A stretch of 64,000 bases of DNA from positions 32,001 to 96,000 of IMG/VR virus record IMGVR_UViG_3300044701_004608. One strand, written 5' to 3'. The DNA is from a virus. Positions within the stretch are counted from its first letter, which is position 1. Each line of letters opens with the position of its first letter. The notes below the pieces were generated by a model. It was not told the DNA's origin, ran no database searches, and was given only the letters and a program-made list of their open reading frames with translations. Of this stretch, positions 2,301 to 32,269 are shown piece after piece. A program made the translations under genes and the position numbers.

Positions 2301-4355
2301 TTACTTCTCGTGCGCGATGAACTCACCGTTCCAGTTATTAGGTAAGTTCTGCTCCTTCATGAACTCGCAACGTTCGATCCAGATCTTGTAATACTTGTCC
2401 ATCTGTCCACCGAACGAACCTTTCATCTTCTTACACATGGCTGCGGTCTCATCGAACTTTTTCTGTTTATATAAGGCATGCATCTTTTCATGTTGCTCTC
2501 GATCTTTGGTCCAATCTTCTCCGTTAGGACGTAAGGCTGTGTAGATCAAGTCTGCTACAGTCTTGCCTTTTGGCTGTAAGTTGTCTAGCATCAAGTAGAA
2601 GAAGTCGTCTTTAGTACGGTTGTATGTCTCGGCACCAATGATACACAATACGCCATATGCTTTACAACGTGCTTCTAGACGTGCGGCGGTTGAAACCATG
2701 TCGCCTAAGATGTCGTAACTGTGTCTATCAGTCGATCCCATCTCGCCGATAAAGCCAATACCAGTGTTACAACCCCAACCCATTGCGGCTGGTGGTAAAC
2801 CTTGTGCTTCCATTTCTTTAGTGTAGGCATCTACAGCATCTAACATCTGTAAGCCAACGGCAACGATCGTGCGAGCATGGTTAGGATCTTCGATCGGAGC
2901 ACCATGAATGTGCATACTCGCGTCACCTACATACTTGATGACCATGCCTTTGTTGTCCATGATAGGACGACTGATGGCATCCATGTAGCCGTTCATGTAT
3001 TTGCCGAGGCCAGCGACGTCATCACCATAGTGTTCACCAATGGGAGTGAAGCCACGCAGGTCTGAGAACATCACCGACACATCTTTGCGCACACCACGCT
3101 TGATCAAGTCGGGATCTTTCTGTAGCATCTCTACCACTTCTTTGCTACAGTATCCTGCGAACTGTTTTTTTATGGCTTGCTTCTGTAAGAACTCACTTAC
3201 AAACTTAACACCATAGGTGTGAAGAGCAACAAGCAAAAGACCAACAGTAGGTGCCGTCGCGTCGATGAGCACGTTTCGTGTAGTAAACATCCACCAAGAA
3301 CAAACAGCATAGGCAACGAGCCCAAGAATAGTTGTTGCGATACCGACATAAGTCCACCTCGATATTATTATTATTGTCAGAGATAGTGCCAGGAAAGCAG
3401 CCAGCTCAGCCATGTCGGCCCAGCCAGGTCGTTGAATATGGACGTTGTTAAACATCGTGCCGATCACAGCGGCTTGCACAGTTTGTGGCCACACGGATCC
3501 CTGTGCTGTGGCAACAGGGTTAGATAGGCCGGCGGCAGCGGTGCCCACGATCACTACAGCGCCACCTAGGTCTTGCGGTAGTTCAGTGAGCCCAACCGAT
3601 TTTGAAGTCTGGCTCCAGTCTATCCATATACGACCTAAGTCGTCTGTAGGTATGACGCCAAACTTGGGAATACGCATCTTCTCTACACCTAGCTCGTTGA
3701 GCTTGGCTTGGAAGTTGGGGTCACCAGCAATGACTCTCAGCACTTCCATAGAGAGTGCGGGATATACTTGATAGCCGGCTTTGTCGGGGACCGATACTAA
3801 TAACGGCATGCGGCGTGTGACGCCATCCACTTCAGGGAATGTGGTAGTGAGTCCCACACCCACGGCAGAGTTTTCCAGTCGTGGTATGTTGGCTATGATG
3901 CCGTCTACTGTGGGCAGTCGATCAGCGAACTGTGCGCCGATGATAGCGGCGCCAGGACTGCGTGGTTCGTTCTTGCCTTTAGGTGCTGCCACGTTGGGCA
4001 ATATCACTGGCAGTTCTCGCATGGCCTGTGACAGACGAGCATCGCCGCCGGAACGATCCGCCTCGGGCATCAAGACATTGAACACCACCAAGCCAGCACC
4101 GCGCTTGTAAAGGTCTTCGATGATGTTGGCGTAGATCTGACGAGGGAATGGCCATTGGCCATAACGCTCTAGCGCGGCTTCGTCGATGTTGACGGTGTAG
4201 ATATTGTTTTCTGTGGGAGTCTTGCTGGTGATCAGCGTGTCGAAGTATCTGAGTTTTATGCTTTCTACAAAGACAGGATTGGCGAGTATTGTAATTGCTA
4301 GAAAGACAACAGTGACCAGTGCCCACAGTGGGCTGAGTGCTATTTTTTTGAACAT
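2301..4355 (-). CDS. CHASE2-domain class III adenylate cyclase
   Basis: CHASE2 motifs (VNIDE..L..YGQWPFPR, DGVTRRMPL), 3 TMs, cyclase motifs FSDLRGFT, KYVGDA, YDILGDMVSTAARLE; start at MFKK just after TAAATA. Confidence 0.93.
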   Translation of the reverse strand: MFKKIALSPLWALVTVVFLAITILANPVFVESIKLRYFDTLITSKTPTENNIYTVNIDEAALERYGQWPFPRQIYANIIEDLYKRGAGLVVFNVLMPEADRSGGDARLSQAMRELPVILPNVAAPKGKNEPRSPGAAIIGAQFADRLPTVDGIIANIPRLENSAVGVGLTTTFPEVDGVTRRMPLLVSVPDKAGYQVYPALSMEVLRVIAGDPNFQAKLNELGVEKMRIPKFGVIPTDDLGRIWIDWSQTSKSVGLTELPQDLGGAVVIVGTAAAGLSNPVATAQGSVWPQTVQAAVIGTMFNNVHIQRPGWADMAELAAFLALSLTIIIISRWTYVGIATTILGLVAYAVCSWWMFTTRNVLIDATAPTVGLLLVALHTYGVKFVSEFLQKQAIKKQFAGYCSKEVVEMLQKDPDLIKRGVRKDVSVMFSDLRGFTPIGEHYGDDVAGLGKYMNGYMDAISRPIMDNKGMVIKYVGDASMHIHGAPIEDPNHARTIVAVGLQMLDAVDAYTKEMEAQGLPPAAMGWGCNTGIGFIGEMGSTDRHSYDILGDMVSTAARLEARCKAYGVLCIIGAETYNRTKDDFFYLMLDNLQPKGKTVADLIYTALRPNGEDWTKDREQHEKMHALYKQKKFDETAAMCKKMKGSFGGQMDKYYKIWIERCEFMKEQNLPNNWNGEFIAHEK

Positions 4356-4366
4356 CAAGTATTTAG

Positions 4367-4464
4367 TGGTGCTCACTTCCGGGGTCCACGGTAGCGAATC
4401 GCTTTCCCCGCGCCAGCAGCCGGCGCACACTACGGTAACTTAATACCGGTCCTAAGGTGTGTCC
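4367..4464 (-). ncRNA. Candidate structured ncRNA between desaturase and cyclase
   Basis: GC-rich intergenic stretch with CACAC/GUGUG, CGGUA/UACCG, GCGCCGG/CUGGCGC and GGGG..GCG/CGU..CCCC stems. Confidence 0.5.
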
Positions 4465-5172
4465 TTATGGGGTCTTGACTCGAGCAAGACCCACGATCTC
4501 TAGCATCCTGATATACATCCAGCCTATGTCAAACTCCCACCACTTGTCGCTTAGTTTCGCCGAAGCAGGGCTCTTATGGTGGTTATTGTGTAGTTCTTCG
4601 CCGCCGACGATGATGCCAAACGGTGCGATGTTAGTGGACCGATCACCAGTCTCATGATTCCTATATCCTATGAAATGTGCCAATCCATTGATGACGCCAG
4701 CGGCCCAGAAGGGTATCCAAGCCATCTGTACCAACCACATCACTATGCCCCAGCCATGGAACAAGTATGTCTCTAGGACCAGCAGGGCAGTGATGCCCCA
4801 CTTGCTGTGGCTGCTGTAGATGTTGCGTTCCACCCAGTCATCGGGCGTGCCCACACCATAGGCTTCGACCATGGCCGAGTTCTTGCTGGCATCGTTGTAG
4901 AGCCACGCACCGCCAAACAGCACACGCCAGATACCGTAGACATGTGGTGAATGTGGATCACCTTCGCCTTCGGTGAAGCGATGATGCTTGCGATGTATGG
5001 CCACCCATTGCCGAGTGACCATACCTGTGGTCAGCCACAACCAGAATCGCATAGCGTGGCTGACTACTGGGTGTAGTTCTACTGCGCGGTGTGCCTGGCT
5101 CCTGTGTAGGTAGATGGTCACACACGCGATGGTGATGTGTGTCATCACCAATACTAAAATAAGTTCTGTCAT
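4465..5172 (-). CDS. Delta-9 acyl-CoA/fatty acid desaturase
   Basis: Three His boxes HRSQAH, HRKHH, HNNHH; WWEFDIGW. Confidence 0.93.
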   Translation of the reverse strand: MTELILVLVMTHITIACVTIYLHRSQAHRAVELHPVVSHAMRFWLWLTTGMVTRQWVAIHRKHHRFTEGEGDPHSPHVYGIWRVLFGGAWLYNDASKNSAMVEAYGVGTPDDWVERNIYSSHSKWGITALLVLETYLFHGWGIVMWLVQMAWIPFWAAGVINGLAHFIGYRNHETGDRSTNIAPFGIIVGGEELHNNHHKSPASAKLSDKWWEFDIGWMYIRMLEIVGLARVKTP

Positions 5173-7790: not shown

Positions 7791-9713
7791 TTATTGTCCT
7801 TGCGTCACAGTTATGGCCGCACAACTAGCGGTAGCACAATTGTGAGTTATAGAATAACTCTGTTGAGTAGAACCGCTCTGTGTGGCCGTTACACTGGTGG
7901 CACCACCTGTGAGTTCTATCCGTGCCATGTGATTGGCCGAGCCGCTCTGTGTGAGATTCACTGTTTTGTTGCCGCCTGCGAGGTTTATTTCGGAATAGTG
8001 ATTGCCTGTGCCGGTTTGATTTATGGTAAGGCTATTTGAATCGCTGTTAACGGTGGCTAATACACCTTTGCTGCCGCCAGTGCTGTTCTGTGTCAGCCCA
8101 ACGGTATTGGAACCACCTGTGAGATCTAATTCCACATAATTGCTGGAGGAATTCGTGGTGGTTTGATTTGTGGTCATGGAGTTATTGCTGCCAGTGATGT
8201 TGGCTTCTAGATAGTTCTTGCCACCATGTTGTGTCACAGAGATAACATTGGAGTTTCCTATCTGTTCGATGATGACTCGGCTGTCGCCCACTGCAGAAAA
8301 TACTCCTGCTCGGGTGGCAAATCCGCTGTTGGCATCAAATGGAGTGCTTACCCCGCCGCAGCATAGGTCACTGGGATTTGACACAGAACCAGATCCAGTG
8401 GCTGTTGAAGTGGCTGTACTACTGGATTCATAGTAAAAGGTGATCTCAGCGATCTGCATGCTGTCGCAGTTCAATCCACAACCGTCACCGGCCTTGGTGG
8501 TGGGGAAGAAAATATAGTAATAGATATAAGGAGTGGCGTTGGTCACTGAGATCATGCTGCTGGTGGTTTTCCTATCATCGGTCAGTGATAGATTTCCTTC
8601 TCCCAGCAGAGTCCAGGTCACACCGTCGTTGGAGGCATACAACTTATAACTGGTGGGATCTCTACCGGGAAAATCGTTGGCTGTTGTTAGAGTAAATCCA
8701 GTTATGACTTTACCGATGTTCAACTTCACTGTGACTCCGGCGTTCTTCTTGTCAAAGTTTAGATACTTGGTATCAGGGTCGTTGTCAAAGGCCTTGGCAG
8801 CATCTTCACCCGCAGGACTGTTGTTCGATGTGGGATAGTGATTGGTGATCCAGACATTCTGGCTGATGCCTGAATTGTAAACAGCAGTGGGCACAGATGG
8901 AGAGGGCGGTGGCGGAGCATCCGATCCTGGATTGGGATTTACTGGAGTGAATGTTTGTCCGTTCAATGAGGTTGTTCCCTGCACTTCGTCTACCAGCAGG
9001 ATGGGACTTAGTGCGGTATCACCTAGATTGAATGATGTGAAACCCAACACATAGGTTCCCGACACTGGCACAGTGAATGTGGCCACTTGCCAACCCGTGG
9101 CACCATAACTGCCTGTGGCATAGTTTCCTGTGCCGGGATTGGTAAAACCCAGCAAAGAATATCTCTGTTGTTTGTTGTTGAGAGTGGGAGTGATATTGCC
9201 GTCGGTGCTGTGGACCAGACTCATGATAGATCCGTCGTTGAAGGGAGTGTAGTCTGTGGAAAGATACTGCCAGGCCATGGTATAGGTCTGTCCTGCCTGC
9301 AAGGTGATCTCTCGCTTCATGTAGGAGCCTGTGGTGGGAGTTGGATTACCTCCTCCGCCGTTCTGCGATTGATAAGTCAGCATGTTTTTGATCGCGGTGT
9401 TTTCCACACCTGATAATCCCAGGCCCGAAGTGATCTGGTCAAAGGCCAAGCCGCCGCCTTGTATGCTGGCCATCTTGGTTCCATAGGGAGTGATGTTCCA
9501 GGTTAGGCCGCCACCAGGACTGTAGTTGGTGACGCCAGTGACCACGCTGACTCCCACACCATTTGGATTCCACCCGGTGGCTGACTGTGTTCCTGTGGTT
9601 CCACCAATCTGCCACTCTGCACCTAGACCGTTTTCGAATCCATAGTTGGCGTTGGCCAGCGCGGAGTGTAACACAGACAGTATCCCAAATAAAAAAATCA
9701 GTAGATTTTTCAT
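7791..9713 (-). CDS. Secreted adhesin-like protein: carbohydrate-binding-like domain, F5/8 type C (discoidin) domain, C-terminal curlin-like repeats
   Basis: Signal peptide MKNLLIFLF; SPAGEDAAKAFDN..TANDFPGRDP..ASNDG.TW; repeats such as IEQIGNSN, INQTGTGNH, LTQSGSANH. Confidence 0.75.
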   Translation of the reverse strand: MKNLLIFLFGILSVLHSALANANYGFENGLGAEWQIGGTTGTQSATGWNPNGVGVSVVTGVTNYSPGGGLTWNITPYGTKMASIQGGGLAFDQITSGLGLSGVENTAIKNMLTYQSQNGGGGNPTPTTGSYMKREITLQAGQTYTMAWQYLSTDYTPFNDGSIMSLVHSTDGNITPTLNNKQQRYSLLGFTNPGTGNYATGSYGATGWQVATFTVPVSGTYVLGFTSFNLGDTALSPILLVDEVQGTTSLNGQTFTPVNPNPGSDAPPPPSPSVPTAVYNSGISQNVWITNHYPTSNNSPAGEDAAKAFDNDPDTKYLNFDKKNAGVTVKLNIGKVITGFTLTTANDFPGRDPTSYKLYASNDGVTWTLLGEGNLSLTDDRKTTSSMISVTNATPYIYYYIFFPTTKAGDGCGLNCDSMQIAEITFYYESSSTATSTATGSGSVSNPSDLCCGGVSTPFDANSGFATRAGVFSAVGDSRVIIEQIGNSNVISVTQHGGKNYLEANITGSNNSMTTNQTTTNSSSNYVELDLTGGSNTVGLTQNSTGGSKGVLATVNSDSNSLTINQTGTGNHYSEINLAGGNKTVNLTQSGSANHMARIELTGGATSVTATQSGSTQQSYSITHNCATASCAAITVTQGQ

Positions 9714-10759
9714 CGGTTCCACTGCCTTATGGTTATCTTGGTAGACCCATCGCCGGTGACCCGTGTATGTAGGTCGTTGTCGTTGATGGATATGCTGTAA
9801 GTGACATTGTCTTGTAGTTCGCCCGACTTCACTGAGATAGTGTTGCCTTTTTCGGGATCGTGACGCCAGTAATAGTTGCGACCTTTTTCGTTGCCGCATT
9901 CGTTGAATGGGTAACAGTTGTCGTTCCGGCTGGATTCGTTGCTTTTATTCTCGGCACTGGCATCTACCAATAACTTCGTAGAGGACTCATCCGATTTCGC
10001 TTTCTGATCCCGGGCCGATTTCTTATCTTCATCCTCTCGGGCTTGTTCTTTCTCGCGATCTTTTTCTTTAAGTTGTTCATCAATACCATCGGGCTTGACC
10101 AAGTTCATGTCGTTGTTGATCAAAGCTATGTCGGGAATGACCGCTACCGGTGGTAGTGGCGCGGCATCTGAAGAAGCTACATATGTGGCCGTGAACGCTT
10201 GGTTCAAGCTCACCATGCCTGCGGCCGTTTCCACATCGATCTGGCCCACTGTACAGTTGTCAGCGATGCGATAGTTGTTAGTATTACGAGGATCTTCACA
10301 GCTGGGCAATAAAACGACCACAGAGCGTCCTGCTTCATCCACGGTCATGGAGAAGTCAGTGCCGCGCACAGCGATGGTGGCCGTGGGTGTCTTGAGGTTC
10401 ACTGCCTGTCGGTTGGTCTTGGCTATCTGGCCCGAAGTGTATTTCACTGTGCCTAGTGCCACTTTCATGGCCAGTTTGCCAGCATCGCTGGCCTTAGGGT
10501 CAAACACGAAATCGTCGATGACCAATCGACTGTTGGCTGTTATCTTTACCTTTGTGTTGTCTTGGAAAGTCAACCCGGCTTCAGTGGCCGATCCCACTAC
10601 TACGAGATCGTTGCTTTCGATGCCGGACTGTTTTGTTATCTGTGATGTAGCAGAACCGCGTTTGACGCTCGCGTTGGCACCTTTGAGTTCAGTTACCGAG
10701 CCTATAGAAGCCCATGAACTCACAGATGCCAACAGTAATAACGAGCATATCCAACGCAT
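9710..10759 (-). CDS. FecR-domain secreted protein
   Basis: Signal peptide; FQDNTKVKITANSRLVID, LKTPTATIAVRGTDF. Confidence 0.88.
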   Translation of the reverse strand: MRWICSLLLLASVSSWASIGSVTELKGANASVKRGSATSQITKQSGIESNDLVVVGSATEAGLTFQDNTKVKITANSRLVIDDFVFDPKASDAGKLAMKVALGTVKYTSGQIAKTNRQAVNLKTPTATIAVRGTDFSMTVDEAGRSVVVLLPSCEDPRNTNNYRIADNCTVGQIDVETAAGMVSLNQAFTATYVASSDAAPLPPVAVIPDIALINNDMNLVKPDGIDEQLKEKDREKEQAREDEDKKSARDQKAKSDESSTKLLVDASAENKSNESSRNDNCYPFNECGNEKGRNYYWRHDPEKGNTISVKSGELQDNVTYSISINDNDLHTRVTGDGSTKITIRQWNR

Positions 10760-11424
10760 TAGTTTCCAGTGATCACTGTCACTGTGTTCGAGTTACCGTT
10801 AGTGTTGATGCTGACGATAGTATCAATGCTTCCCGACTGTGTGACGGAATGCGTATTAGAAGTTCCTGTGACTGCGGCTGTCAATGTATGGCCACCACCT
10901 GCTGATGTGCCCGACATTGTATGTGTGAACTGGTTGCTGTCGCCCAGGATGGTGATCGAGGCTGAACTGTTGTCAGTCTGGATGTCCTGAGATACTGTGT
11001 TGCTGTTGCCAGTGATGCTAAGGCTGTTAGTGATGGCAGAACCTTTGATGGTCTGTGTCACTGTGTTGCTGTCGCCTTGTATAGTTGTAGTGCTTGTCAC
11101 TCCTGTACATGCAGTAGTTCCGTCACCGCAAGTCATGGTGATGGCGTTAGTGTCGCCAGTCACTGACTTAGTGATAGTGTTGCCAGAACCTGTGACAGCG
11201 TAAGCCAGCGTGTTTGAATCGCCGGTTTGTGTCACGGTCATTGAGTTGTTGCTGCCAGTGATGGTAGCGTCAACGCTGGAAGTACCCACAGAGTTGAGCG
11301 TACCAACTTGTGTTATGCTGATGGTGTTACTGCCACCAACCTGCTCGATATACACTGAGTTTCCTGCATGGGCCACGGTGAATGACATCGCCACCGCTAA
11401 ACCTATCAGTGTTCTTTTAAACAT
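10759..11424 (-). CDS. Curlin-repeat (CsgA/CsgB-like) secreted protein
   Basis: Signal peptide ending AHA; repeated N-x5-Q-x-G-x2-N units; Thr/Ser/Asn/Gly-rich. Confidence 0.75.
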   Translation of the reverse strand: MFKRTLIGLAVAMSFTVAHAGNSVYIEQVGGSNTISITQVGTLNSVGTSSVDATITGSNNSMTVTQTGDSNTLAYAVTGSGNTITKSVTGDTNAITMTCGDGTTACTGVTSTTTIQGDSNTVTQTIKGSAITNSLSITGNSNTVSQDIQTDNSSASITILGDSNQFTHTMSGTSAGGGHTLTAAVTGTSNTHSVTQSGSIDTIVSINTNGNSNTVTVITGN

Positions 11425-11466
11425 GCTTTATCAGAGGCGTTAAACCTCCGCTCCTTCATTTTATGT

Positions 11467-12618
11467 TCAATCGTCTAAACGACTGAATCTGCTTTTATGT
11501 ACCCAACCGGTATTGCCGCTATATTCGACGAATACCCAGTCTCGTTTCTTTTCTAGGACCACGACACGCGACCCGGGTTCAAGCCTTGTTGTCTTTTCAC
11601 TGTCCGTGATAGGCTGGCTCCGCAGGTTAGACCAATCTTTGATCTCACCTGTTTTTTTGATGGGCACAGCTTTCTGTTGAGGTACTACTTTTTCAGTTGT
11701 GGGTGAGGGCGGAGTTTCTTTTTCAATTTTCTTTTCTGTTACTGGAGAAGCCGCAGGAGCGGGTGCTACTTTGACTTCTTCTTTTTTTGGTTCAACCTTG
11801 GGTGTTTCTGTCAATGGTGTAGCCACGACCACTGGTTTACGATACTGCCAATGTCCTTTTTTCTCGCCTTGCTTGATCATCTCGATCACGGCGGCGTGGA
11901 TGGCTAGTTGTACTGCGCTGTTCATGCTTTCGTTGCTGGCGGCACCAGTTTCAAGTTCCAGTGCTTTAGTGCCAAGATCATAGAAGCGTAGCACGCCCAT
12001 CTTGTCTTGGAACGACACTACGGTTTTCTTGATCGTGACTGCTGTGAGAACTTCACCGCTGGCCACAGAAACAGCACGGAGACTAATCACGATCTCGTCC
12101 TGGCGATATTCTGTGCTGGCCCCGATGCCTAATAATCTAGCGCCCGAGCCACCACTGATCACGTTGCTGTCATAACCTACGATACCACCTTCAAGTATCA
12201 GTCCTGCGAACACCATAGGAGGCAATGCCTGTGCGTCCTTGCCTTGATAGAGTTCGCGCATCTGGCGTATGAGCTGGCGTTCCTTGACGATGTTGTCTAG
12301 GCCGCCACGCTCGACTACTTTAAACCAACTGCCGTTGCCTACTTCCTGTAAGCTACGGATGAGATAGTTGTCAGCACCTTGTGTCACAGCCGAGCTCAAT
12401 GATGCTAGAGTCTGGCTGGCTTTGCGTTGACCTGTTAAGTCACGGAAACTGTAGACGGCCACGGTGATAGCACCACCTTGTGGTGGTAACAGTTGTTCTT
12501 GGTTCAATAATACTGGTTGTGTGGCTTCAGGTTGATCGATGGTACGAACTTGTTTAGAAATCGTAGAGCATCCAGCCAACATGGATATCACTGCGAGTGC
12601 TAGGATAGTCTTCTTCAT
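11467..12618 (-). CDS. csgG: CsgG curli secretion lipoprotein fused to a C-terminal SH3b domain
   Basis: Lipobox LAGC; VAVYSFRDLTGQRK, WFKVVERGGLDNIVKERQLIR, EGGIVGYD; C-terminal NLRSQP..DWVFV..GWV. Confidence 0.92.
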   Translation of the reverse strand: MKKTILALAVISMLAGCSTISKQVRTIDQPEATQPVLLNQEQLLPPQGGAITVAVYSFRDLTGQRKASQTLASLSSAVTQGADNYLIRSLQEVGNGSWFKVVERGGLDNIVKERQLIRQMRELYQGKDAQALPPMVFAGLILEGGIVGYDSNVISGGSGARLLGIGASTEYRQDEIVISLRAVSVASGEVLTAVTIKKTVVSFQDKMGVLRFYDLGTKALELETGAASNESMNSAVQLAIHAAVIEMIKQGEKKGHWQYRKPVVVATPLTETPKVEPKKEEVKVAPAPAASPVTEKKIEKETPPSPTTEKVVPQQKAVPIKKTGEIKDWSNLRSQPITDSEKTTRLEPGSRVVVLEKKRDWVFVEYSGNTGWVHKSRFSRLDD

Positions 12619-13076
12619 GGCGCGATCCATCCAAAGTCACCGATGGGCACAGACACGGTAGTGACATTACCATTGTTGTCTGTGATAGTCATGGTGATGG
12701 TCTGTCCATCACTGGTGTAACTGATAGATCCGCCATTGAAACTGAAAGAACCATTGACTTGTGTGCCTTGGCCTTCGAATAGTTTTTCTGTGATCTGGCG
12801 TGCGAGTTCGTTGTAGACGCGGCTTTCCAAGTTGGCAATGAATCGTGCCATAGTGGTGTTTTTGGCGTCTTGCTCGGCTTTCAAGTCAGCGGCTTTCTTC
12901 TCGGCTGCGATAGCGAGTTTGCGGCTGAGTTCTTGATTATAGATAGTCAGGACATGGCTCGAGTAGCCGATGCCAGAAAATGCGGGTGAGTTAAATTGAT
13001 GTACTAATTCACTTGCTACTATACTGCTCGATATCACACAGCTCACGACCGCTATTGTAATTTTTTTTGCGATCAT
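12615..13076 (-). CDS. csgF: CsgF curli assembly protein
   Basis: Signal peptide then SELVHQFNSPAFSG; FIANLESR; ITDNNGNVTTVSVP. Confidence 0.88.
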   Translation of the reverse strand: MIAKKITIAVVSCVISSSIVASELVHQFNSPAFSGIGYSSHVLTIYNQELSRKLAIAAEKKAADLKAEQDAKNTTMARFIANLESRVYNELARQITEKLFEGQGTQVNGSFSFNGGSISYTSDGQTITMTITDNNGNVTTVSVPIGDFGWIAP

Positions 13077-19415: not shown

Positions 19416-19625
19416 TCAACCGAGAATAGTAGGTTTCCACGCCAAACACCAGTATTCTGGACGTACTGGTGCGAACCAGCGACGGCACTGCCCAGAATCG
19501 AAATAGCCGCAATTACCACAGGCTTGGCTTCCCGGTGTTACACCGGGCACACCCGAAAGCTGATATTCGGGCGGCAGCTTTGGGCATATAGGTGTGCCAT
19601 CGGGATACAGCCTCTGGTCACTCAC
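19416..19625 (-). CDS. HiPIP-like 4-Cys small protein
   Basis: C-x2-C-x7-C-x12-C spacing ending in WC..W: CGNCGYFDSGQCRRWFAPVRPEYWCLAW. Confidence 0.6.
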   Translation of the reverse strand: MSDQRLYPDGTPICPKLPPEYQLSGVPGVTPGSQACGNCGYFDSGQCRRWFAPVRPEYWCLAWKPTILG

Positions 19626-20400
19626 TGGACGCCTCCGTGAAACGATCTGGGAACTGCAGGACTATGCCTTTGGCGAATATGTCCGAAAACGCTGGCGTGC
19701 CATCATACTGTCCGGCCAGGATGATACGGTGCGCTGTGTCCACCGCTTCGATATCGGCAGGCCAGTTTTTGCTGACGCGGGCACGACATTGTTCGATCCA
19801 GGCCTGGAGCACTTTGCCAAAGATGGCCTTGACCACATCGGCGGGCCAGTGCTGGGGGTTGGCTTTTTGTGCGAAGTTGGCGAAATCGTCGAGTTCGGCA
19901 TCGACTTTCTTGACTAAGGCATCGATGTTGCCGCCTTTCTTGAGCGTCTGCACGATCTCTAGTACTGTGAGTACAAACGATCTCATGTATTGTGCCAACT
20001 GTTTGCTGGCTACTAATCCATAGTAGGGGCGAACCGAGTCACCGATCTCGTCGATGTTTTGGAACAGTTGCTCTTCGACCACGGCCAAGTCTTCGCCGTT
20101 GTGCAAGGCGCTGGTGATGTAGTTGCGCAGTCTCCACAGGTATCTAGCCCAGATGGTGCGCTGGTCCATGCGCCAAGTCACAGCGGGTTCTGTGTTGAAC
20201 ACCGATATCGTGCCGGGCACATACATGGCTGTTTCTGTGACCACTACGCCGTTGCCGTTGGGGTTACCGTTGCCGTTGGTGTAGCCGTTGCCGTTAGTGT
20301 AGCCGTTGCCGTTGAGTTTGACGCCGTTGATGGCTTCCAGGGCCAAGGGATGATCAAAGTGTTCTTCTTTGATGGTGTGTGTTATGAGTTTGTAAACCAT
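19618..20400 (-). CDS. Helical-bundle protein B (paralog of 24341..24955)
   Basis: RTIWARYLWRLRNYI..LFQNIDEIG...PYYG..A..N.QHWP..FSDIFAKGIVLQFPDRF; AAGGAG SD. Confidence 0.75.
   Translation of the reverse strand: MVYKLITHTIKEEHFDHPLALEAINGVKLNGNGYTNGNGYTNGNGNPNGNGVVVTETAMYVPGTISVFNTEPAVTWRMDQRTIWARYLWRLRNYITSALHNGEDLAVVEEQLFQNIDEIGDSVRPYYGLVASKQLAQYMRSFVLTVLEIVQTLKKGGNIDALVKKVDAELDDFANFAQKANPQHWPADVVKAIFGKVLQAWIEQCRARVSKNWPADIEAVDTAHRIILAGQYDGTPAFSDIFAKGIVLQFPDRFTEASSE
20248..20313 (-). repeat. NGNGYT-type tandem coding repeat
   Basis: NGNGYTNGNGYTNGNGNPNGNG; repeated GCCGTT units. Confidence 0.85.
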
Positions 20401-20415
20401 TTTAAATCTCCTTTG

Positions 20416-20937
20416 TTAAGATTGTTGTACATTGGCGATGACCCACCATGCGCCGTTTTGTCCCAGCAGAGTCACTGACTCATAGGGTTGTTGCAATTCA
20501 AGTTCTTGATCTCTGCCTTCGAGATCGTTGCCACCTTGTGGGATGATCTTGGTCTTGTAGCCGCCGGGGCCACGCTGGTCCTTGATGATCAGGATCCTAC
20601 AGATGGCACCTATCACTGGCAGTTTGATATCCACTGTCTTGCCCACGGATGGTTTGACGACTCCGATGTAGTAGTCATCGCTTTGTACCGTGTAGTCGGC
20701 GTTGACATAGCGTGTGACGCAGTTGTGATTACCCCCGCCACCGTTGGCGCTCAATGTACCATCGGCGGCCACTGTGAGACCTGTGCCGACCTTGACCACG
20801 CCCAGATCAGTGGTGGTGGCGATGTCAGCATCGATTTCAAAGTCCACGTTGCCAGCAGGCGCTGTAGGATCCGGAGGTATGCTTTGTTTCAAGGCTCGCC
20901 CTGCTCGCACTGCGGTGGGTGCGCGGAAGTAACTCAT
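20416..20937 (-). CDS. Small beta-rich fibre/coat-like protein
   Basis: ATTTDLGVVKVGTGL plus YTVQSDDYYIGV..LP..IIKD domain shared with neighbours. Confidence 0.75.
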   Translation of the reverse strand: MSYFRAPTAVRAGRALKQSIPPDPTAPAGNVDFEIDADIATTTDLGVVKVGTGLTVAADGTLSANGGGGNHNCVTRYVNADYTVQSDDYYIGVVKPSVGKTVDIKLPVIGAICRILIIKDQRGPGGYKTKIIPQGGNDLEGRDQELELQQPYESVTLLGQNGAWWVIANVQQS

Positions 20938-20946
20938 GATCGCTCC

Positions 20947-21339
20947 TTAGACCACGTGCCATTCCGTGCCACGGAAGATGAAACTCACTGATCCGTAAGT
21001 CACGGTGTTGACGAAAGTGGCAGATCCATCGATGGTCTCGCCGCCAGTACCTTGGATGGTGATGTTGCCGGATCCTGGGCCCAGTTCGTCTTTGATGATG
21101 AACATCTTGCCATCGGTGCCAGTGGGCAGCGTGATGGTAGTGGCCACAGCCGAGTTCACTCCGATGTAGTAGTCATCGTTGGTGGCCGCGTAGTCCACTG
21201 TGACCACTGTAGTATTGTAGATGGGATTGCTGGGCGAGCCGCCTGTGACAGAGATCACGCCCCCGGTGATGGTTATTCCTGTGCCGGCCTGTACTAGGCC
21301 GAAATCTGTGGTTGATGCTAAAGGTACTTTGTATGACAT
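20947..21339 (-). CDS. Small beta-rich fibre/coat-like protein
   Basis: ASTTDFGLVQAGTGI plus DDYYIGVN..TLP..IIKDE..TIDG..EWHVV. Confidence 0.75.
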   Translation of the reverse strand: MSYKVPLASTTDFGLVQAGTGITITGGVISVTGGSPSNPIYNTTVVTVDYAATNDDYYIGVNSAVATTITLPTGTDGKMFIIKDELGPGSGNITIQGTGGETIDGSATFVNTVTYGSVSFIFRGTEWHVV

Positions 21340-21351
21340 GGTGTTTTCCTT

Positions 21352-21906
21352 TTATAGTTGTATGATGGTGCATCTCACGCTGGGTGTCGCTGGTCGGATG
21401 GGCCCAACTTGTGCAGGTGTAGTCAACAATCGCATGTTGACATCAGTGCTTTGCCAAGCGACCTGTATGTTGTCGCCGGCGTTTAACGCCACGGTGAAAT
21501 TCCACGACGCCACCAACACTCCCACGGTGCCTTCCACTGACACCTGAGAGTTGGTATTGGGATAGGCTGTGCCATTGCGTATCAGCCATAGGTCTGCGAG
21601 ATCCGTCCCAGCGTCGGTCTTGTCGATCTGTATCACGAACTGGAAGTTGTAGTTGGCATCCTTGCTCACAGTGATCTGGGAGCCACCCACCAATGTGATG
21701 CCCACGTTGATGGCAGAGTTGTCAAATGTGATGATGTTGACAGCGTTGGCCACTGGGTTGGTCTGTGTCTGTGTGCTGAAAAAGTAGGCTTGATCCAGCA
21801 AGGCCACCGGCACCACGCTGATCACCCCATCAGTGACAGACAGTCCGGAGCCGGACTGTACCACTCCATAGTCACCGGCGGTGCTGATGGGCTGCTTGTA
21901 GGTCAT
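21352..21906 (-). CDS. BclA C-terminal/C1q-like jelly-roll protein
   Basis: STAGDYGVVQSGSGL leader; ITFD, ITV....YNFQF, LWLIRNG, LNAGDNIQV. Confidence 0.65.
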   Translation of the reverse strand: MTYKQPISTAGDYGVVQSGSGLSVTDGVISVVPVALLDQAYFFSTQTQTNPVANAVNIITFDNSAINVGITLVGGSQITVSKDANYNFQFVIQIDKTDAGTDLADLWLIRNGTAYPNTNSQVSVEGTVGVLVASWNFTVALNAGDNIQVAWQSTDVNMRLLTTPAQVGPIRPATPSVRCTIIQL

Positions 21907-22340
21907 TACACCACGTTCCATTCCGTGCCGTTGAACACCAGGGTTATGCTGGCATAGTCGGTGTTGAGCACATAAGTGGCAGCACCATCTATGGTGTTGC
22001 CGTTGCCGGACACTGTTATGTTGTTGGTGTTGGCGTCACCGTCGATGTCCTTGATGATCAAGACCTGTCCCACGATGGGACTGGCTGGCAGCACCACAGT
22101 AGCTGGTGCCGCTATGTTCACGCCCAGATAGTAGTCTCCGGGTTGCACGGCGTAGGGCGTGGAATTCACTATCGTGACATTGACCGGGCTGGGACTGCCA
22201 GTGAATGTGCCTAGATTGATGAAGTCATTTCCCCAGCCACCAATGCTGTTGTTGAGTTGTGACACTGGCGCAGGGCGTGCTACGGGTAAGAGACCCGGGC
22301 GGCGTGGGCGGAATATTATCGGGCTGTAGTACTGGAACAT
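21906..22340 (-). CDS. Small beta-rich fibre/coat-like protein with Pro/Arg N-terminus
   Basis: YAVQPGDYYLGVN..VLP..IIKD..TIDG..EWNVV. Confidence 0.75.
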   Translation of the reverse strand: MFQYYSPIIFRPRRPGLLPVARPAPVSQLNNSIGGWGNDFINLGTFTGSPSPVNVTIVNSTPYAVQPGDYYLGVNIAAPATVVLPASPIVGQVLIIKDIDGDANTNNITVSGNGNTIDGAATYVLNTDYASITLVFNGTEWNVV

Positions 22341-22730
22341 TTATTTTTCCTTGTTTTCGTCAATGATGTCTTGTGCGGTCAACACCTGTTTGACCTTGTT
22401 GATTTTTTTGGTCACTTCGTCCAAATTGGAGAATAGTGGGCCGGCCGCGGGTGCTTGTTCCACTGGTTCTTCAACTTCTGATTCTTTGTCGTCAACGACG
22501 AACTTGAGAAGTTGTTCGGCCCGCTCTAAAATCTGTGCTTCTGTGGGATAAGGTGCGAATGGTGGATATGGCAAGCGTTCCCGGCGAGTTTTCCACACCA
22601 GATCAGCATCTGCCAACCACTTGTTGTGATCTTCGGCGCGCTTGTTGATGTATTCTTCGTTGAGGAGGGTGCGCGCCATCCTCAAGACCTCCATCCTATG
22701 TTTGGCTAGTTCAATGTCCTTGTCTATCAT
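22341..22730 (-). CDS. Hypothetical protein
   Basis: RMEVLRMAR..L..YPTEAQILERAEQL..FV. Confidence 0.7.
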   Translation of the reverse strand: MIDKDIELAKHRMEVLRMARTLLNEEYINKRAEDHNKWLADADLVWKTRRERLPYPPFAPYPTEAQILERAEQLLKFVVDDKESEVEEPVEQAPAAGPLFSNLDEVTKKINKVKQVLTAQDIIDENKEK

Positions 22731-22930
22731 TGTTGTCCCCAATCACTGCGGTTCCATAATCTTTCATGTATGATATAACTGATAGAGTTGATCACCAGTG
22801 TGGCAGCTCCTATCGATAGTCCTTTCCAGGGATCTCCAGTCACTACCCAACCCACTGTGCTGTTAGTGATCATCATCCAGATCCTCCAGGTCAGAGTTTT
22901 GACTGCTGTGCGTGTCAGTGTGTCTGTCAT
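22727..22930 (-). CDS. DUF2061-like small membrane protein
   Basis: RTAVKTLTWRI ... YIIHERLWNR..WG. Confidence 0.8.
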   Translation of the reverse strand: MTDTLTRTAVKTLTWRIWMMITNSTVGWVVTGDPWKGLSIGAATLVINSISYIIHERLWNRSDWGQQ

Positions 22931-23178
22931 TGCCAGCGATCTAGCACGATAATCAGCACAGAGATCAAGGCTGTGGCTATTGAAACTGCTGTACCCACTA
23001 CCTTGATCGTCTCTTGTCGATGGTGGTCACGATATTCTTTGAGCCGGGCCAGATCGTGTTCGGCCTCATCTATTCGTTTCTCGAGTGCCTGGTATCGTTC
23101 ATGGCACAATTCTACATGTGCCTCAAGGTTGTCGCGCTCGATGCCGAGATACTTTTTGGCTGTGACCACAAAACTCAT
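22927..23178 (-). CDS. Coiled-coil plus C-terminal TM protein (XhlA/holin-like), paralog of 40644..40913
   Basis: LEAHVELCHERY motif. Confidence 0.7.
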   Translation of the reverse strand: MSFVVTAKKYLGIERDNLEAHVELCHERYQALEKRIDEAEHDLARLKEYRDHHRQETIKVVGTAVSIATALISVLIIVLDRWQ

Positions 23179-23182
23179 TGTG

Positions 23183-23443
23183 TTAACCCACTACAGTTGG
23201 TGTAGAAGTCTGCGCAACGGTATCCATGTCGCCGGTGTTTATCAAACGCTGACCTGACACTGCACTACGGTTGTAGTTGCCTACAAATGTGTTGTTGGCA
23301 CTTTGTACCGCGCCTACCCCAGGATAACCGTATCCCACACCGTATCCGCCAAATCCATAATTTGGCCATCCCCAGCCGCCCCATGGGTAACGACGGTGAG
23401 CAAAGCTACCGTAGAAGGGGTGGTGATGATATAAACTAAACAT
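23183..23443 (-). CDS. Gly/Tyr/Trp-rich 86-aa protein with conserved C-terminal motif
   Basis: AAGGAG SD; MFSLYHHH..WGGWGWPNYGFGGYG..SAVSGQRLINTGDMDTVAQTSTPTVVG. Confidence 0.75.
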   Translation of the reverse strand: MFSLYHHHPFYGSFAHRRYPWGGWGWPNYGFGGYGVGYGYPGVGAVQSANNTFVGNYNRSAVSGQRLINTGDMDTVAQTSTPTVVG

Positions 23444-23456
23444 ATTCAATCTCCTT

Positions 23457-23489
23457 GTTAAAAGACGAGCAGGGATCACCCGCTCGTCT
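23457..23489 (-). terminator. Hairpin/terminator inside the cassette
   Basis: AGACGAGCGGG-TGAT-CCC(T)GCTCGTCT followed by a short T run on the minus strand. Confidence 0.6.
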
Positions 23490-23497
23490 ACTCTCAA

Positions 23498-23644
23498 TTA
23501 CCAGTAATAGGGACCGTAACCCCCACCGTAGTAGGGATAACCGTATCCATATCCCCAATATGGGTAGGCTAAGCCCCCATAGTAAGGATAACCAATACCG
23601 GCTGCCAGGTAAGGCCTGGCGTAACCCCAGGGCCTATAGAACAT
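23498..23644 (-). CDS. 48-aa Tyr/Gly/Pro-rich peptide (not in ORF track)
   Basis: GGAGG SD; MFYRPWGYARPYLAAGIGYPYYGGLAYPYWGYGYGYPYYGGGYGPYYW*. Confidence 0.75.
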   Translation of the reverse strand: MFYRPWGYARPYLAAGIGYPYYGGLAYPYWGYGYGYPYYGGGYGPYYW

Positions 23645-23659
23645 GGTCTCTTCCTCCGA

Positions 23660-24223
23660 TTAAGTGATCGAAGTTGGAGTCGATGTCTGTGTAGTACCTG
23701 TCATGGTTCCGGTATTGACCAGACCTTGGCTAGAGATTGCACTGTTCAGTGCGTTGATAGCGGCTACGCTGTTAGCGCTCTGGTAAGCACTGACAGCACC
23801 ACCGTAGGCTAGACCTAGACCACCATAGAGACCGTTAAGACCTGTCAGAGCTGTGTTGGTATTGATCAGAGCCGTGTTGAGGTTTTCACGGTTGATGCCG
23901 TTGATGAGCTGGCGTGTGAGTTCAGCTTGACCCATCACAGCTTCGCGTGTGCGAGCAGCTTCTTGCATGACGAGTGCGTCAGTGCGAGCGGCGGCCAACA
24001 TAGCGGCTGTGTTAGCATCATTTACTGCCTGCTTGGTAGCAGCCAGTGCCTGGTCCGTGTGGAATGCTGTTTGCATAGCACGGTTGTTGATGTCGTTGCT
24101 TTGTGCGACTTGAAGTTTGTAGTTTTCGAAAACGCTGTCAGAAACTTTTGTGTTTACGGCCTGGATCTGTGCGCTCAGGGCGTAGAAAGGATCTGTTGTG
24201 AATGCTCCTGTTACATCTGCCAT
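23660..24223 (-). CDS. Ala/Thr/Asn/Gln-rich helical structural-type protein
   Basis: Strong AAGGAG SD and leader hairpin; no Cys or Trp; C-terminal SAISSQGLVNTGTMTGTTQTSTPTSIT. Confidence 0.8.
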   Translation of the reverse strand: MADVTGAFTTDPFYALSAQIQAVNTKVSDSVFENYKLQVAQSNDINNRAMQTAFHTDQALAATKQAVNDANTAAMLAAARTDALVMQEAARTREAVMGQAELTRQLINGINRENLNTALINTNTALTGLNGLYGGLGLAYGGAVSAYQSANSVAAINALNSAISSQGLVNTGTMTGTTQTSTPTSIT

Positions 24224-24293
24224 TTTAGTAGTCTCCTTGTAAATGGTGTTATACCGGACGTCCCGGTATAATTACTTAGAAGCAAATGGCCAA

Positions 24294-24320
24294 GAAAAAG
24301 CCAGGCTTGAGCCTGGCCTA
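24294..24320 (-). terminator. Intrinsic terminator
   Basis: GCCAGGC-TCAA-GCCTGGC followed by T6. Confidence 0.75.
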
Positions 24321-24340
24321 GTACTTGAGTGATGCGATGA

Positions 24341-24955
24341 TCACGTTGCTATGGCAAATCTATCGGGACTCTGTTGTACTATCCCCGAAGCAAACACATG
24401 GGCCAATTGTCTAGCTGTGTCGAAGCATCTGTCAGTCGCAGTGAGATCCTCGTTCCAGTTTTTAATCAACCTCATATTGATCTGCGAAAACCATGTCTCT
24501 ACTAAATCCATCAATTGATTTTTGATATTGAGCATGTTCCATGCTCCGGGATTGAGTGTAGACATGAGATCAAATAATTCAGATGCACTGTTTTTTAATT
24601 TAGTCACTAAATCCTGCACGAACATGTCTGTGTTGATATTAAAATTTACCGGAGGTTTCTTGATATAATCTAACAACTGTATCATTTCAGTAGTCTGTGC
24701 CTCCATGATAGTACGCCATCGCTGTGCTGAATCAGTACCATAGTAATCATTGATGGTATCGAAAAAATCAGAGATGTTAGCCATGACCCATTCTCTCGTG
24801 ACTGGCATCTCAGGCATCCCATTCATTACAGCTACTAGGTGGCTACGATTTCGCCAGACATAATCGTTCCAGAGGTCGCGGGACCTGGCATGGAAATTGC
24901 CTACTTTGGCAGGATCTTCTTGGAAGTATTGTGTTGTGGTGACTTTGTAAACCAT
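24341..24955 (-). CDS. Helical-bundle protein A (paralog of 19618..20400)
   Basis: MVYK start; RDLWNDYVWRNRSHL..DYYG..LNPGAWN..LAHVFASGIVQQSPDRF. Confidence 0.75.
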   Translation of the reverse strand: MVYKVTTTQYFQEDPAKVGNFHARSRDLWNDYVWRNRSHLVAVMNGMPEMPVTREWVMANISDFFDTINDYYGTDSAQRWRTIMEAQTTEMIQLLDYIKKPPVNFNINTDMFVQDLVTKLKNSASELFDLMSTLNPGAWNMLNIKNQLMDLVETWFSQINMRLIKNWNEDLTATDRCFDTARQLAHVFASGIVQQSPDRFAIAT

Positions 24956-24957
24956 TT

Positions 24958-25638
24958 TTATAACCTCGCTCCATTGTTGACTGCCAGGGCCAGTTGTGTA
25001 CGGTTCCTGACACCGTATCGTTTCAAGATGGCACTGACATGTATTTTCACTGTGCTTTCTGATATGTTGAGTTGGCGTGCGATGGCTTTGTTTGACAAGC
25101 CTCGTTCGCACAACAGTTTCTGTACTTCTTGCTGACGATCTGTGAGTGTGACTTCGTCGCTGTGCGATTTGGTGTCTGCTTTAGAAGTCTGCTCCATACA
25201 TTCACGGGGCCAGAAATCCTGACCTTTGGTGAACATCTCTTCATAGGCTCGCTGATTCAGATAATAGTCGAAATCGTCGATGTGTGGGATCACTCCCGAG
25301 ATGCCCATGTCCTTGAATGCTTTGACCTGTTGCCGTGTCAAGGGAGTCCTTAATAATACCAGGAATTTGCTATCCACTTCGCCGAATCGACAATCAAGGA
25401 ATATCTTGAAACCCAGCACGAGGTCCCGGAATCGTTCGTTAAATTCATCGACGATGTTTTGATCGATGGAGATGAACTTGGGGGGCGAGTCGAGATGGGA
25501 GATGAACCCAAACGCTTGCCTGACATTGTTGGCCGACAAGGGTTGGAACCCAAACTGTTTGCCTCGGTCATTGAATACCTGTGATTGTTTTAGATTCGCA
25601 GAGATCCTCAATCCCAGTGGTGTGTTTTCCGTGTGCAT
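24958..25638 (-). CDS. NarL/LuxR-family transcriptional regulator with degenerate receiver-like N-terminus
   Basis: [45 protein letters not shown]; start MHTENT with AAAGGA SD. Confidence 0.88.
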
Positions 25639-25880: not shown

Positions 25881-26213
25881 TCAGTGTGTGTTGAGACTTG
25901 GTGAATATTGCCGAATCAATTCACGCTCACGGGCATGGGCGGGTTTGCGTCCACGCACGATCTCGATGAGACCGTAAGTGTGAGCTTCGGGGCCATGCTC
26001 TCTAATACTTTCGCATAGTGCCCATGACTTGTTTTCGGTGAGTGCTCTGCGGATGTGCTTCTGGATGCGGATTTTAAGAGCGCGGCGTACTTGGCTACCG
26101 CACACAGTGATGCCGATATACTGCTCGCCAGTCTGGGTGTTAGTGATACAGTAGACAGCATGTTTGGTGTCCTGTCTACGGCGTCTTTTTGGGGTGGGAT
26201 TTCTCATTTCCAT
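25881..26213 (-). CDS. GIY-YIG family nuclease (catalytic domain only)
   Basis: AVYCITN..GEQYIGIT..R..H..A..RERELI....LN. Confidence 0.8.
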   Translation of the reverse strand: MEMRNPTPKRRRRQDTKHAVYCITNTQTGEQYIGITVCGSQVRRALKIRIQKHIRRALTENKSWALCESIREHGPEAHTYGLIEIVRGRKPAHARERELIRQYSPSLNTH

Positions 26214-26219
26214 AATAAT

Positions 26220-26248
26220 ATTATACGAAAATGGGAATAATTGGTCAA
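26220..26248 (-). promoter_or_regulatory. Sigma70-type early promoter
   Basis: TTGACC-17-TATAAT; spacer TTCCCATTT shared with the 62912-62940 promoter. Confidence 0.8.
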
Positions 26249-26254
26249 CCAAAA

Positions 26255-31144: not shown

Positions 31145-32269
31145 TTAAAGACTGAAACCTTTAAAGGTGTCGTTGGTGACGTCCTGTTTGGTTCCGCCTA
31201 TCACATAGGTGGTGATTTCAGTTTCTTGTGGTGCCACTTGTACTTCGGCACCGGCGATCCACTTAGCGGTCCATGGCAATGGGTTCGAGCCAGGTTTGAT
31301 GCCACAGTTGAGTCCCACAGCAGTCATGCGCTTACACAATACCCAGTCCACATAGTCGCAGAGAAGTTGCTTGTTCAAGCCGATCATGCTGCCGTCTTTG
31401 AACAAATATTCAGCCCAGGACTTTTCCTGCTCGGCGGCTTCGAAATAGATCTGTTCGCATTCTCTCTGGGTCTCTTCGCGGATCTCAGCAAACTCCGGGT
31501 CATCTTGTGGCAGCAATTTGAGTAAGGTTTGCGTGGACCCTAAATGTATGTTTTCATCCCGGCAGATGAGCTTGATGATCTTGGCATTGCCTTCCATCTT
31601 CTTGAGTTCAGCGAAGGCCCAGGAGCAAGCGAACGAAACATAAAAACGGATGCCTTCTAGGGCATTCACTGATGTCAGTGCCAACCACAGTTTCTTCTTG
31701 AGATCTCTGCGATCGACTACTACTGTTTGACCATTGACAGTGTGAGTACCTTCGCCCAAGACTTGATACCATTGGCTAGCATCGATGAGTTCATCATAGT
31801 AACGGCTGATGCCAACGGCACAGTCCACGATCTCTTTGGTGTCCAAGAGTTCGTCGAAGATCTTAGAAGGATCCGAATACACGTTACGGATGATGTGGGT
31901 GTAACTGCGACTGTGGATGGTCTCGTTGAACGCCCAAGTCTCGATCCAAGTCTCTAGTTCAGGTAGGCTGGCCAGTGGCAGGAATGCCAGATTGGGACTG
32001 CGGCCTTGTACCGAGTCCAGGAGGATCTGGCGCTTGAGGTTTGAAGTGAAAATGTGTTGTTCGTGCTCTGTGAGTTCTTTGAAGTCCTTGGCGTCACGCA
32101 AGACGTCGACTTCTTCGGGTCTCCAGAAAAAGCCTAATTGTTTGTCTGTGAGTTTGTCAAATTGTCTGTATTTTAATGTTTCGTAGCGTTGTATGCCCAC
32201 TGGACCGTTAGGGTCTAGGAAGGCCAGTGCCTTGGTATGGTCAGATGATTTAGTATTGAATACGGTCAT
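31145..32269 (-). CDS. nrdB: Class Ia ribonucleotide reductase beta subunit
   Basis: FFWRPEE, DSVQGR, ETIHSRSYTH, EGIRFYVSF, DENIH, VAPQETE. Confidence 0.97.
   Translation of the reverse strand: MTVFNTKSSDHTKALAFLDPNGPVGIQRYETLKYRQFDKLTDKQLGFFWRPEEVDVLRDAKDFKELTEHEQHIFTSNLKRQILLDSVQGRSPNLAFLPLASLPELETWIETWAFNETIHSRSYTHIIRNVYSDPSKIFDELLDTKEIVDCAVGISRYYDELIDASQWYQVLGEGTHTVNGQTVVVDRRDLKKKLWLALTSVNALEGIRFYVSFACSWAFAELKKMEGNAKIIKLICRDENIHLGSTQTLLKLLPQDDPEFAEIREETQRECEQIYFEAAEQEKSWAEYLFKDGSMIGLNKQLLCDYVDWVLCKRMTAVGLNCGIKPGSNPLPWTAKWIAGAEVQVAPQETEITTYVIGGTKQDVTNDTFKGFSL

Follow-up and report, generated by a model that had tools for sequence, protein, structure and literature searches.

We found that 14 adjacent genes at positions 19416-25638 of a stretch of viral DNA (IMG/VR record IMGVR_UViG_3300044701_004608, positions 32,001 to 96,000) form a real conserved module that is kept together in about 40 IMG/VR phage fragments. 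The whole stretch, 64,000 nucleotides (nt) long, is called the window here, and coordinates are those of the window unless another locus is named. The reading of this cassette that we rank first, tentatively and at somewhat less than an even chance, is that it is a strongly expressed accessory fibre or appendage module, fibrous, previously undescribed and probably borne on the virion. An earlier note on the window, made from the letters alone, had proposed a spore-coat or exosporium-like kit for a shell, an idea that we weigh below. The layout that it described was confirmed: all 14 open reading frames (ORFs) are tightly packed on the minus strand, with inter-gene gaps of -16 to +15 nt except in two places (117 nt before the gene for a 187-amino-acid (aa) protein and 54 nt after the 48-aa gene), and terminator-like hairpins are present at the upstream border (25868-25849) and after helical-bundle protein A (24319-24298). 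From 5' to 3', the features of the cassette are:

24958-25638, minus strand: LuxR/FixJ-type regulator, 226 aa; Pfam GerE match, with a receiver-like N-terminal domain that is family-specific.
24341-24955, minus strand: helical-bundle protein A, 204 aa, a divergent member of the helical-bundle (HEL) family; AlphaFold2 (AF2) model and paralogy to protein B.
24298-24319, minus strand: terminator-like hairpin closing the unit of the LuxR and helical A genes; terminator scan.
24250-24278, minus strand: promoter-like TAAGTAAT box (24278-24271) and 8+8 inverted repeat (24270-24250); sequence.
23660-24223, minus strand: rod protein, 187 aa, rich in Ala, Thr, Asn and Gln; alignment of homologues and AF2 model.
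23498-23644, minus strand: micro-protein of the YG family, 48 aa, rich in Gly, Tyr and Pro; conserved ORF.
23464-23488, minus strand: hairpin followed by a T-run, 3' of the 48-aa gene; sequence, with a loop that exceeds the range of the terminator scanner.
23183-23443, minus strand: protein of the GYW family, 86 aa, rich in Gly, Tyr and Trp; C-terminal motif in common with the rod protein.
22927-23178, minus strand: tail-anchored coil protein, 83 aa, with the coil at its N-terminus and the transmembrane anchor at its C-terminus; sequence.
22727-22930, minus strand: DUF2061 membrane protein, 67 aa; Pfam 1.8e-14.
22341-22742, minus strand: acidic helical protein, 129 aa (129-133 aa among relatives); sequence and the loci of relatives.
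21906-22340, minus strand: mini-fibre 1, 144 aa, with a basic N-terminus and a gp10/XD-like beta sandwich; Pfam, PHROGs and PDB.
21352-21921, minus strand: mini-fibre 2, 189 aa, with a tail-fibre-like N-terminal motif and a C1q-like head; PHROG and Atlas.
20947-21339, minus strand: mini-fibre 3, 130 aa, with the mini-fibre C-terminal sandwich; Pfam below cut-off, PHROG.
20416-20937, minus strand: mini-fibre 4, 173 aa, with a fibre motif and the mini-fibre C-terminal sandwich; similarity.
19618-20400, minus strand: helical-bundle protein B, 260 aa, with a His/Glu N-terminal tag and an Asn/Gly/Tyr repeat insert; BLASTP.
19416-19625, minus strand: four-Cys HiPIP-like protein, 69 aa; invariant Cys residues and PDB profiles.

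Support for a single unit comes from synteny in about 40 phage fragments with differing flanks and not from co-orientation, which is uninformative for the 14 genes because nearly every long ORF in the window lies on the minus strand. A profile of the 187-aa rod protein retrieved 42 IMG/VR loci, and gene order was derived by tblastn and all-against-all clustering; per-gene counts are given over 43 loci. Nearly everywhere the order from 5' to 3' is the LuxR gene, the rod gene (in one or two tandem copies), two Gly/Tyr micro-protein genes (the second being the one whose product ends with the rod protein's C-terminal motif), one or two helical-bundle genes, the gene for the tail-anchored coil protein, the acidic helical gene, four beta-protein genes, a further helical-bundle gene and a papain-family protease gene. 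The LuxR gene stands upstream of the rod gene in 34 of the 43 loci and is absent from nine, including the three most divergent; the tail-anchored coil gene is kept in 32. The papain-type protease (Peptidase_C1, Pfam up to 1.8e-13) closes the module in 24 loci, and none is found in this contig, which is itself incomplete. The DUF2061 assignment of the earlier note is well above the Pfam cut-off (54.3 bits against 23.1), and this gene is found only in close relatives (of the L001/L002 type), where it is a lineage-specific insert; the acidic helical gene is always the first after the coil gene. The four beta proteins are four orthologous kinds in a fixed order across loci. The genes that flank the cassette in the window are not near the module in other loci, whose flanks are assorted auxiliary genes that differ between fragments, so inner gene order is intact while flanks are reshuffled, across 50-70% identity of the rod protein. 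Thus the genes do form a conserved unit with the LuxR gene and the Tyr/Gly peptides, as the earlier note had supposed, and they co-occur in other genomes.

The families of the cassette are phage-only in distribution, and the phage source named by the earlier note was borne out. Among 185,579 species genomes scanned, the rod gene was found in one metagenome-assembled genome fragment only and there were no lysogenic copies; helical-bundle protein B, used alone as the query in the first viral-contig scan, gave no match. We found no literature on such a phage module, in agreement with the earlier statement that no phage system of this kind had been described. The viral contig to which the window belongs is 111,782 bp long and has no terminal repeat; it encodes ribonucleotide reductase, helicase and primase, and has tail-fibre-like genes as well as many auxiliary ones. 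Because contigs of up to 339,769 bp carry identical cassette proteins and 110-kb relatives are about 32% complete by CheckV, we take the source to be an uncultured jumbo phage of about 300-340 kb, and DNA of this phage is present in freshwater metagenomes, with no RNA run among those listed as containing it. The carriers of the module are a clade of uncultured T4-related freshwater phages of about 300-340 kb, and the host is probably Gram-negative. A 709-aa protein of the window (2301-4430, minus strand) is 44% identical to a protein of the Melnitz/HTVC008M myophages. The Melnitz and HTVC008M counterparts are annotated as adenylate/guanylate cyclase, and the gene adjoins one for a protein with a fatty-acid desaturase domain (4465-5172, minus strand; Pfam 1.3e-11).

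The beta proteins are the members that have recognisable relatives. Mini-fibre 1 matched Pfam Phage_depo_C (3.8e-6, 27.7 bits against a cut-off of 25), the PHROG tail-fibre family phrog_972 (5.7e-13) and, in the PDB, both the N-terminal adaptor domain of the CBA120 tailspikes (7rfv/7rej, 7e-4) and the N-terminal domain of the T4-type long-tail-fibre proximal subunit; its sandwich thus matches the domains by which the fibres and spikes of T4 and CBA120 dock onto each other. Relatives of mini-fibre 1 carry 4-7 G-P-P collagen triplets (Pfam Collagen 17-18 bits, below cut-off), and no G-x-y collagen repeats occur in any cassette protein of the window. Mini-fibre 3, which has orthologues at the equivalent position in other loci, matched phrog_972 at 5.4e-4 and Phage_depo_C below cut-off (0.0068, 17.3 bits), and mini-fibre 4 is tied to mini-fibres 1 and 3 through sequence similarity alone. 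By these comparisons, three of the four beta proteins have one common C-terminal sandwich domain. Mini-fibre 2 matched phrog_746 (2.6e-5) and had no Pfam C1q match and no PDB sequence match. In Atlas it was assigned to a viral C1q cluster (0.94, taken as a lead only) and superposed on the end of a 1010-aa phage collagen protein (TM-score 0.86), so that, as a lead, it looks like a C1q-type fibre tip. The BclA/C1q-like protein of the earlier note is therefore retained in part: the C1q-like lead stands, but the protein has no collagen repeats here and no Pfam C1q match.

The rod protein is the most conserved member of the cassette. Its homologues fill at least 768 clusters (the best 120 listed are all at least 65% identical), and its alignment has a mean column identity of 84%, compared to 25-45% identity for the neighbouring genes; in many loci the gene is tandemly duplicated. 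AF2 modelled the protein as a single 117-residue helix (residues 12-128, pLDDT 63) with a low-confidence tail, and the homotrimer prediction scored 0.40 against a mark of 0.42. A possible relationship to allophycocyanin beta (PDB E 0.04-0.3) was rejected, as the protein has no Cys, is modelled as a single helix and has a low-complexity segment. Both Gly/Tyr micro-protein families are real genes with conserved cores, that of the 48-aa YG ORF being kept in at least 19 loci; their homologues are solely unnamed metagenome proteins. A relationship of the Gly/Tyr proteins to CotC/CotU or SgpA-D found no match in Pfam, NCBIfam or PHROGs, and they have no signal peptide. The rod protein and the 86-aa protein share an end of about 23 residues (N-T-G, x3-4, G, x2, Q, x2, T-P-T, x, I), and within this contig the shared motifs are confined to the cassette. 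The motif sharing that the earlier note had described thus holds for the C-termini of the 187-aa and 86-aa proteins and, in relatives, extends to an N-terminal tag of the HEL family that is carried by further proteins. Its statement that the soluble members have no Sec signal peptides also agrees with our reading of the translated N-termini, where no Sec-type signal is visible.

Helical-bundle proteins A and B are paralogues (BLASTP 6e-23), as the earlier note had it, and protein A is modelled by AF2 as a six-helix bundle with pLDDT 87. The HEL family comprises at least 3075 clusters at E<=1e-3. When the model of protein A was compared with the PDB by Foldseek, only generic helix bundles were found; in a structure scan the best match was to a designed protein (Z 10.8), followed by rhodopsins. 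In BFVD it matched family members and a protein of Bodo saltans virus that carries the label glycosyl transferase (E 2.4e-5), and in Atlas unnamed bacterial proteins of about 206-214 aa that are automatically labelled glycosyltransferase; these labels are leads only. The interior of the bundle has no conserved catalytic-type residue. Structural neighbours of the family include Bacillota proteins with LysM or Cu_amine_oxidN1 domains, and individual members have a cupredoxin-like domain or CBM6 as a fusion partner. Most HEL members carry a 17-residue His/Glu-rich N-terminal tag, which is missing from helical A. In relatives the tag is found on at least four unrelated bodies (helical bundles, HiPIP-like, His-rich and other small proteins). 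To judge by its sequence, its behaviour is that of a portable tag for addressing or metal binding. Tag carriers at L008 3333-3521, L027 12518-12796 and L015 14141-14671 include a 62-aa peptide rich in His, besides HiPIP-like proteins and a third small domain. The HiPIP-like protein, which in some relatives is fused to the HEL tag, has four Cys that are invariant in 10 relatives, and no Pfam match or Tat signal. The HiPIP-like call of the earlier note agrees with the alignment of these four Cys to PioC and HiPIPs, its best PDB profile matches, but the E values of 0.1-0.4 are not significant.

The earlier note had called the first gene product a NarL/LuxR regulator. The GerE helix-turn-helix (HTH) is secure (PF00196, 6.7e-16, 58.1 bits against a cut-off of 23.5), but no canonical receiver domain is recognised by Pfam (no Response_reg match); instead, the N-terminal domain is specific to the family and is present in one to three copies in relatives. 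The NCBIfam matches (ErdR, NarL, CsgD) are confined to the HTH, and none comes near its cut-off; the CsgD model NF007505, for example, scores 45.7 bits against a cut-off of 250. Because terminator-like hairpins lie at 25868-25849 and 24319-24298, we conclude that the LuxR and helical A genes form a first transcription unit. Ahead of the 187-aa gene the sequence shows signals of its own: a strong ribosome-binding site, an 8+8 inverted repeat and, before these, the TAAGTAAT box. Most loci keep the box 5' of the rod gene, whereas the hairpin after it differs in sequence from locus to locus. We rejected as the main reading that the inverted repeat is a LuxR operator: the window and L001 have near-identical HTHs and different repeats, and a leader RNA hairpin is therefore more likely. 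In the three most distant loci (L041-L043), which have no LuxR gene, TATAAATA, a T4 late-type box, takes the place of the TAAGTAAT box, and its only copy on the plus (gene) strand of each locus is directly before the rod gene. This lone box suggests late, strong expression of the rod gene. Outside the window (G000 C1 9649-12244, L046), a TAAGTAT box and a hairpin resembling that of the rod gene stand before AhpC- and AhpF-like genes (N-terminal sequences only), so this promoter type is not limited to structural genes.

When we compared the window (24958-25638 and 24341-24955) with L002 (9300-10609), the LuxR sensor domain and helical A were about 49% identical, whereas the next six genes were 98-100% identical. 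The regulatory head has therefore been exchanged separately; the swap of LuxR sensor and helical A is recent, and helical A may work with the LuxR sensor. Directly upstream of the cassette is a 123-aa ORF (25881-26252, minus strand) that is GIY-YIG-like by eye. Many loci have homologues of it (43-58% identical, 95% in L002) upstream of the module, at distances that vary and in some cases on the strand opposite to the module; the ORF may be an element of the homing type, close to the regulatory head that can be exchanged.

We rank a fibrous assembly first because the known relatives of the cassette proteins are fibre and spike parts only, the rod is predicted to be fibrous, the proteins are not exported, the families are phage-only and no coat family was matched. 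The synteny of about 40 loci, the phage-only range, the fibre-type domains, the rod helix, the expression signals and the absence of export signals all speak for it. In the assembly that we propose, the rod protein would oligomerise into a coiled-coil shaft of about 17 nm, the Gly/Tyr micro-proteins and the rod would dock on one partner or co-assemble via their common C-terminal strand, and the four mini-fibres would assemble as a defined hetero-complex of knobs. The tagged helical-bundle proteins would serve as accessory parts, chaperones or metal binders, the coil protein with its tail anchor would provide a membrane-side assembly site, the papain-type protease of relatives would mature parts and the LuxR-type protein would tune expression. 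The most likely location would be the virion, as head or tail hairs or whiskers, since all parts are made in the cytoplasm of a lytic infection. Several points weigh against this picture. No member has yet been seen in any virion, and the gp10/XD-like sandwich indicates ancestry in common with fibre parts, not location. The cassette is surrounded by auxiliary and replication genes, with no morphogenesis block, and among INPHARED phages neither the cassette DNA nor helical B nor the rod protein found a match. A simple set of fibre genes would not usually come with a regulator of its own, a membrane anchor, small redox-type proteins and a protease, and no relatives are known for the rod, the Gly/Tyr peptides or the helical bundles, so that their roles are guessed.

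A first alternative, which we consider unlikely, is that the block is not one machine and that two or three sub-modules (regulator and helical A; rod and Gly/Tyr proteins; mini-fibres) have been co-inherited in one phage lineage. All loci do come from one broad clade, the LuxR gene is missing from nine of the 43 (among them the three most divergent), a terminator parts LuxR and helical A from the remainder, and the swap of the LuxR sensor and helical A in L002 did not extend to the rest. However, inner order survives 50-70% rod-protein identity while flanks are reshuffled, motifs are shared across the supposed sub-modules, and the HEL tag is found on HiPIP-like proteins among the fibre genes. 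A further reading, decidedly unlikely in our view, is that the cassette makes a new phage material: the rod and Gly/Tyr proteins would co-polymerise via the C-terminal strand, metal- or redox-tagged proteins would harden or organise the polymer, and collagen/C1q knobs would decorate a virion coat or a scaffold in the infected cell, timed by the module's own sensor-regulator.

We judge very unlikely the reading closest to the earlier note, in which a coat, matrix or shell forms in or around the infected cell or groups of virions, from a rod and Gly/Tyr polymer hardened through tyrosine or metal and covered by a collagen/C1q nap. It draws on a point-for-point analogy with the exosporium and coat of the Bacillus cereus group (BclA, BxpB/ExsFA, CotC/CotU, GerE): a GerE-type HTH regulator, collagen and C1q-type proteins, terminal address motifs and Tyr/Gly-rich peptides. 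The metal and redox flavour of the module (His/Glu tag, His-rich peptide, HiPIP-like proteins and one cupredoxin fusion) and the LysM and Cu_amine_oxidN1 proteins of Bacillota among the structural neighbours of the helical bundles would also fit. In contrast, no coat, exosporium or sulfur-globule family was matched in Pfam, NCBIfam, PHROGs or the PDB, the cassette has no cross-linking enzyme, the host is probably Gram-negative, and there is no sporulation context. The proteins have no secretion signals and so could not reach the surface of a Gram-negative cell; the families are phage-only, with no lysogenic copies, and the known domains are tail-fibre and tailspike adaptors. The earlier proposal of a spore-like shell was thus not upheld, and the coat idea remains an analogy. 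Least probable of all is that tag-bearing proteins are cargo sent to the capsid or another compartment, trimmed by the protease and active in the next host: one 17-residue tag on at least four unrelated bodies, an I-x-E-E element in the tag that we take to resemble the T4 prohead-protease site and the Peptidase_C1 gene that closes 24 loci would suit it, but it leaves the rod, the Gly/Tyr peptides and the four mini-fibres unexplained, one family member is fused to CBM6 (which fits a surface better than an interior), this contig has no protease gene and helical A has no tag.

Compared with known phage structures, an accessory fibre module would resemble the T4 gp10/gp34 N-termini and the XD domains of CBA120 TSP2 and TSP4 (7rej/7rfv) in the beta sandwich of mini-fibre 1 and in having several small trimeric-type proteins encoded side by side. 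Unlike those adaptors, the cassette proteins are 130-190 aa long, have no long shaft or enzyme and are encoded outside the baseplate block, and the cassette adds a coiled-coil rod, Gly/Tyr peptides, helical bundles and its own regulator. The phi29 head fibre gp8.5 and T4 fibritin are accessory coiled-coil fibres that the short, probably strongly expressed, dispensable-looking helical rod resembles by fold only. No homology to them was detected, and the rod differs in being far more conserved than its neighbours and in having a motif in common with micro-proteins.

The curli system (CsgD; CsgA/B/F/G) resembles the cassette in N/Q/S/T/G-rich motifs and in a regulator of the LuxR family whose receiver-like domain is non-canonical; however, the cassette proteins have neither curlin repeats nor signal peptides, and the CsgD model matches the HTH only. 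Elsewhere in the window, at 9710-13076 on the minus strand, is a curli-type set that encodes a CsgF-like 153-aa protein, CsgG (Pfam 1.5e-47) with a C-terminal SH3 domain, a curlin-repeat protein and a FecR-domain protein. The curlin-repeat protein, 221 aa long, has a signal peptide and some nine curlin-like repeats (Pfam Curlin_rpt 4.9e-9) and is a candidate secreted subunit. A link between the cassette and these curli genes was unsupported, as no csgG was found near the cassette elsewhere or in five incomplete relatives of 100-140 kb. In published pelagimyophages and Melnitz, csgG and csgF were reported and csgA/B were not (PMC9004378); a phage with a candidate secreted curli subunit would bear on that open question.

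The module is widespread: with at least 768 rod clusters and at least 3075 helical-bundle clusters, its parts rank with the most common proteins of large freshwater phages that are still uncharacterised. It joins several protein families that have no known relatives, shared address tags and a regulator family of its own. As possible self-assembling protein materials, the Gly/Tyr micro-proteins and the conserved rod are of interest too. Identifying the product would add a new phage structural element, whether hairs, a coat or an intracellular scaffold, and that product could explain how giant phages persist or attach in lakes.

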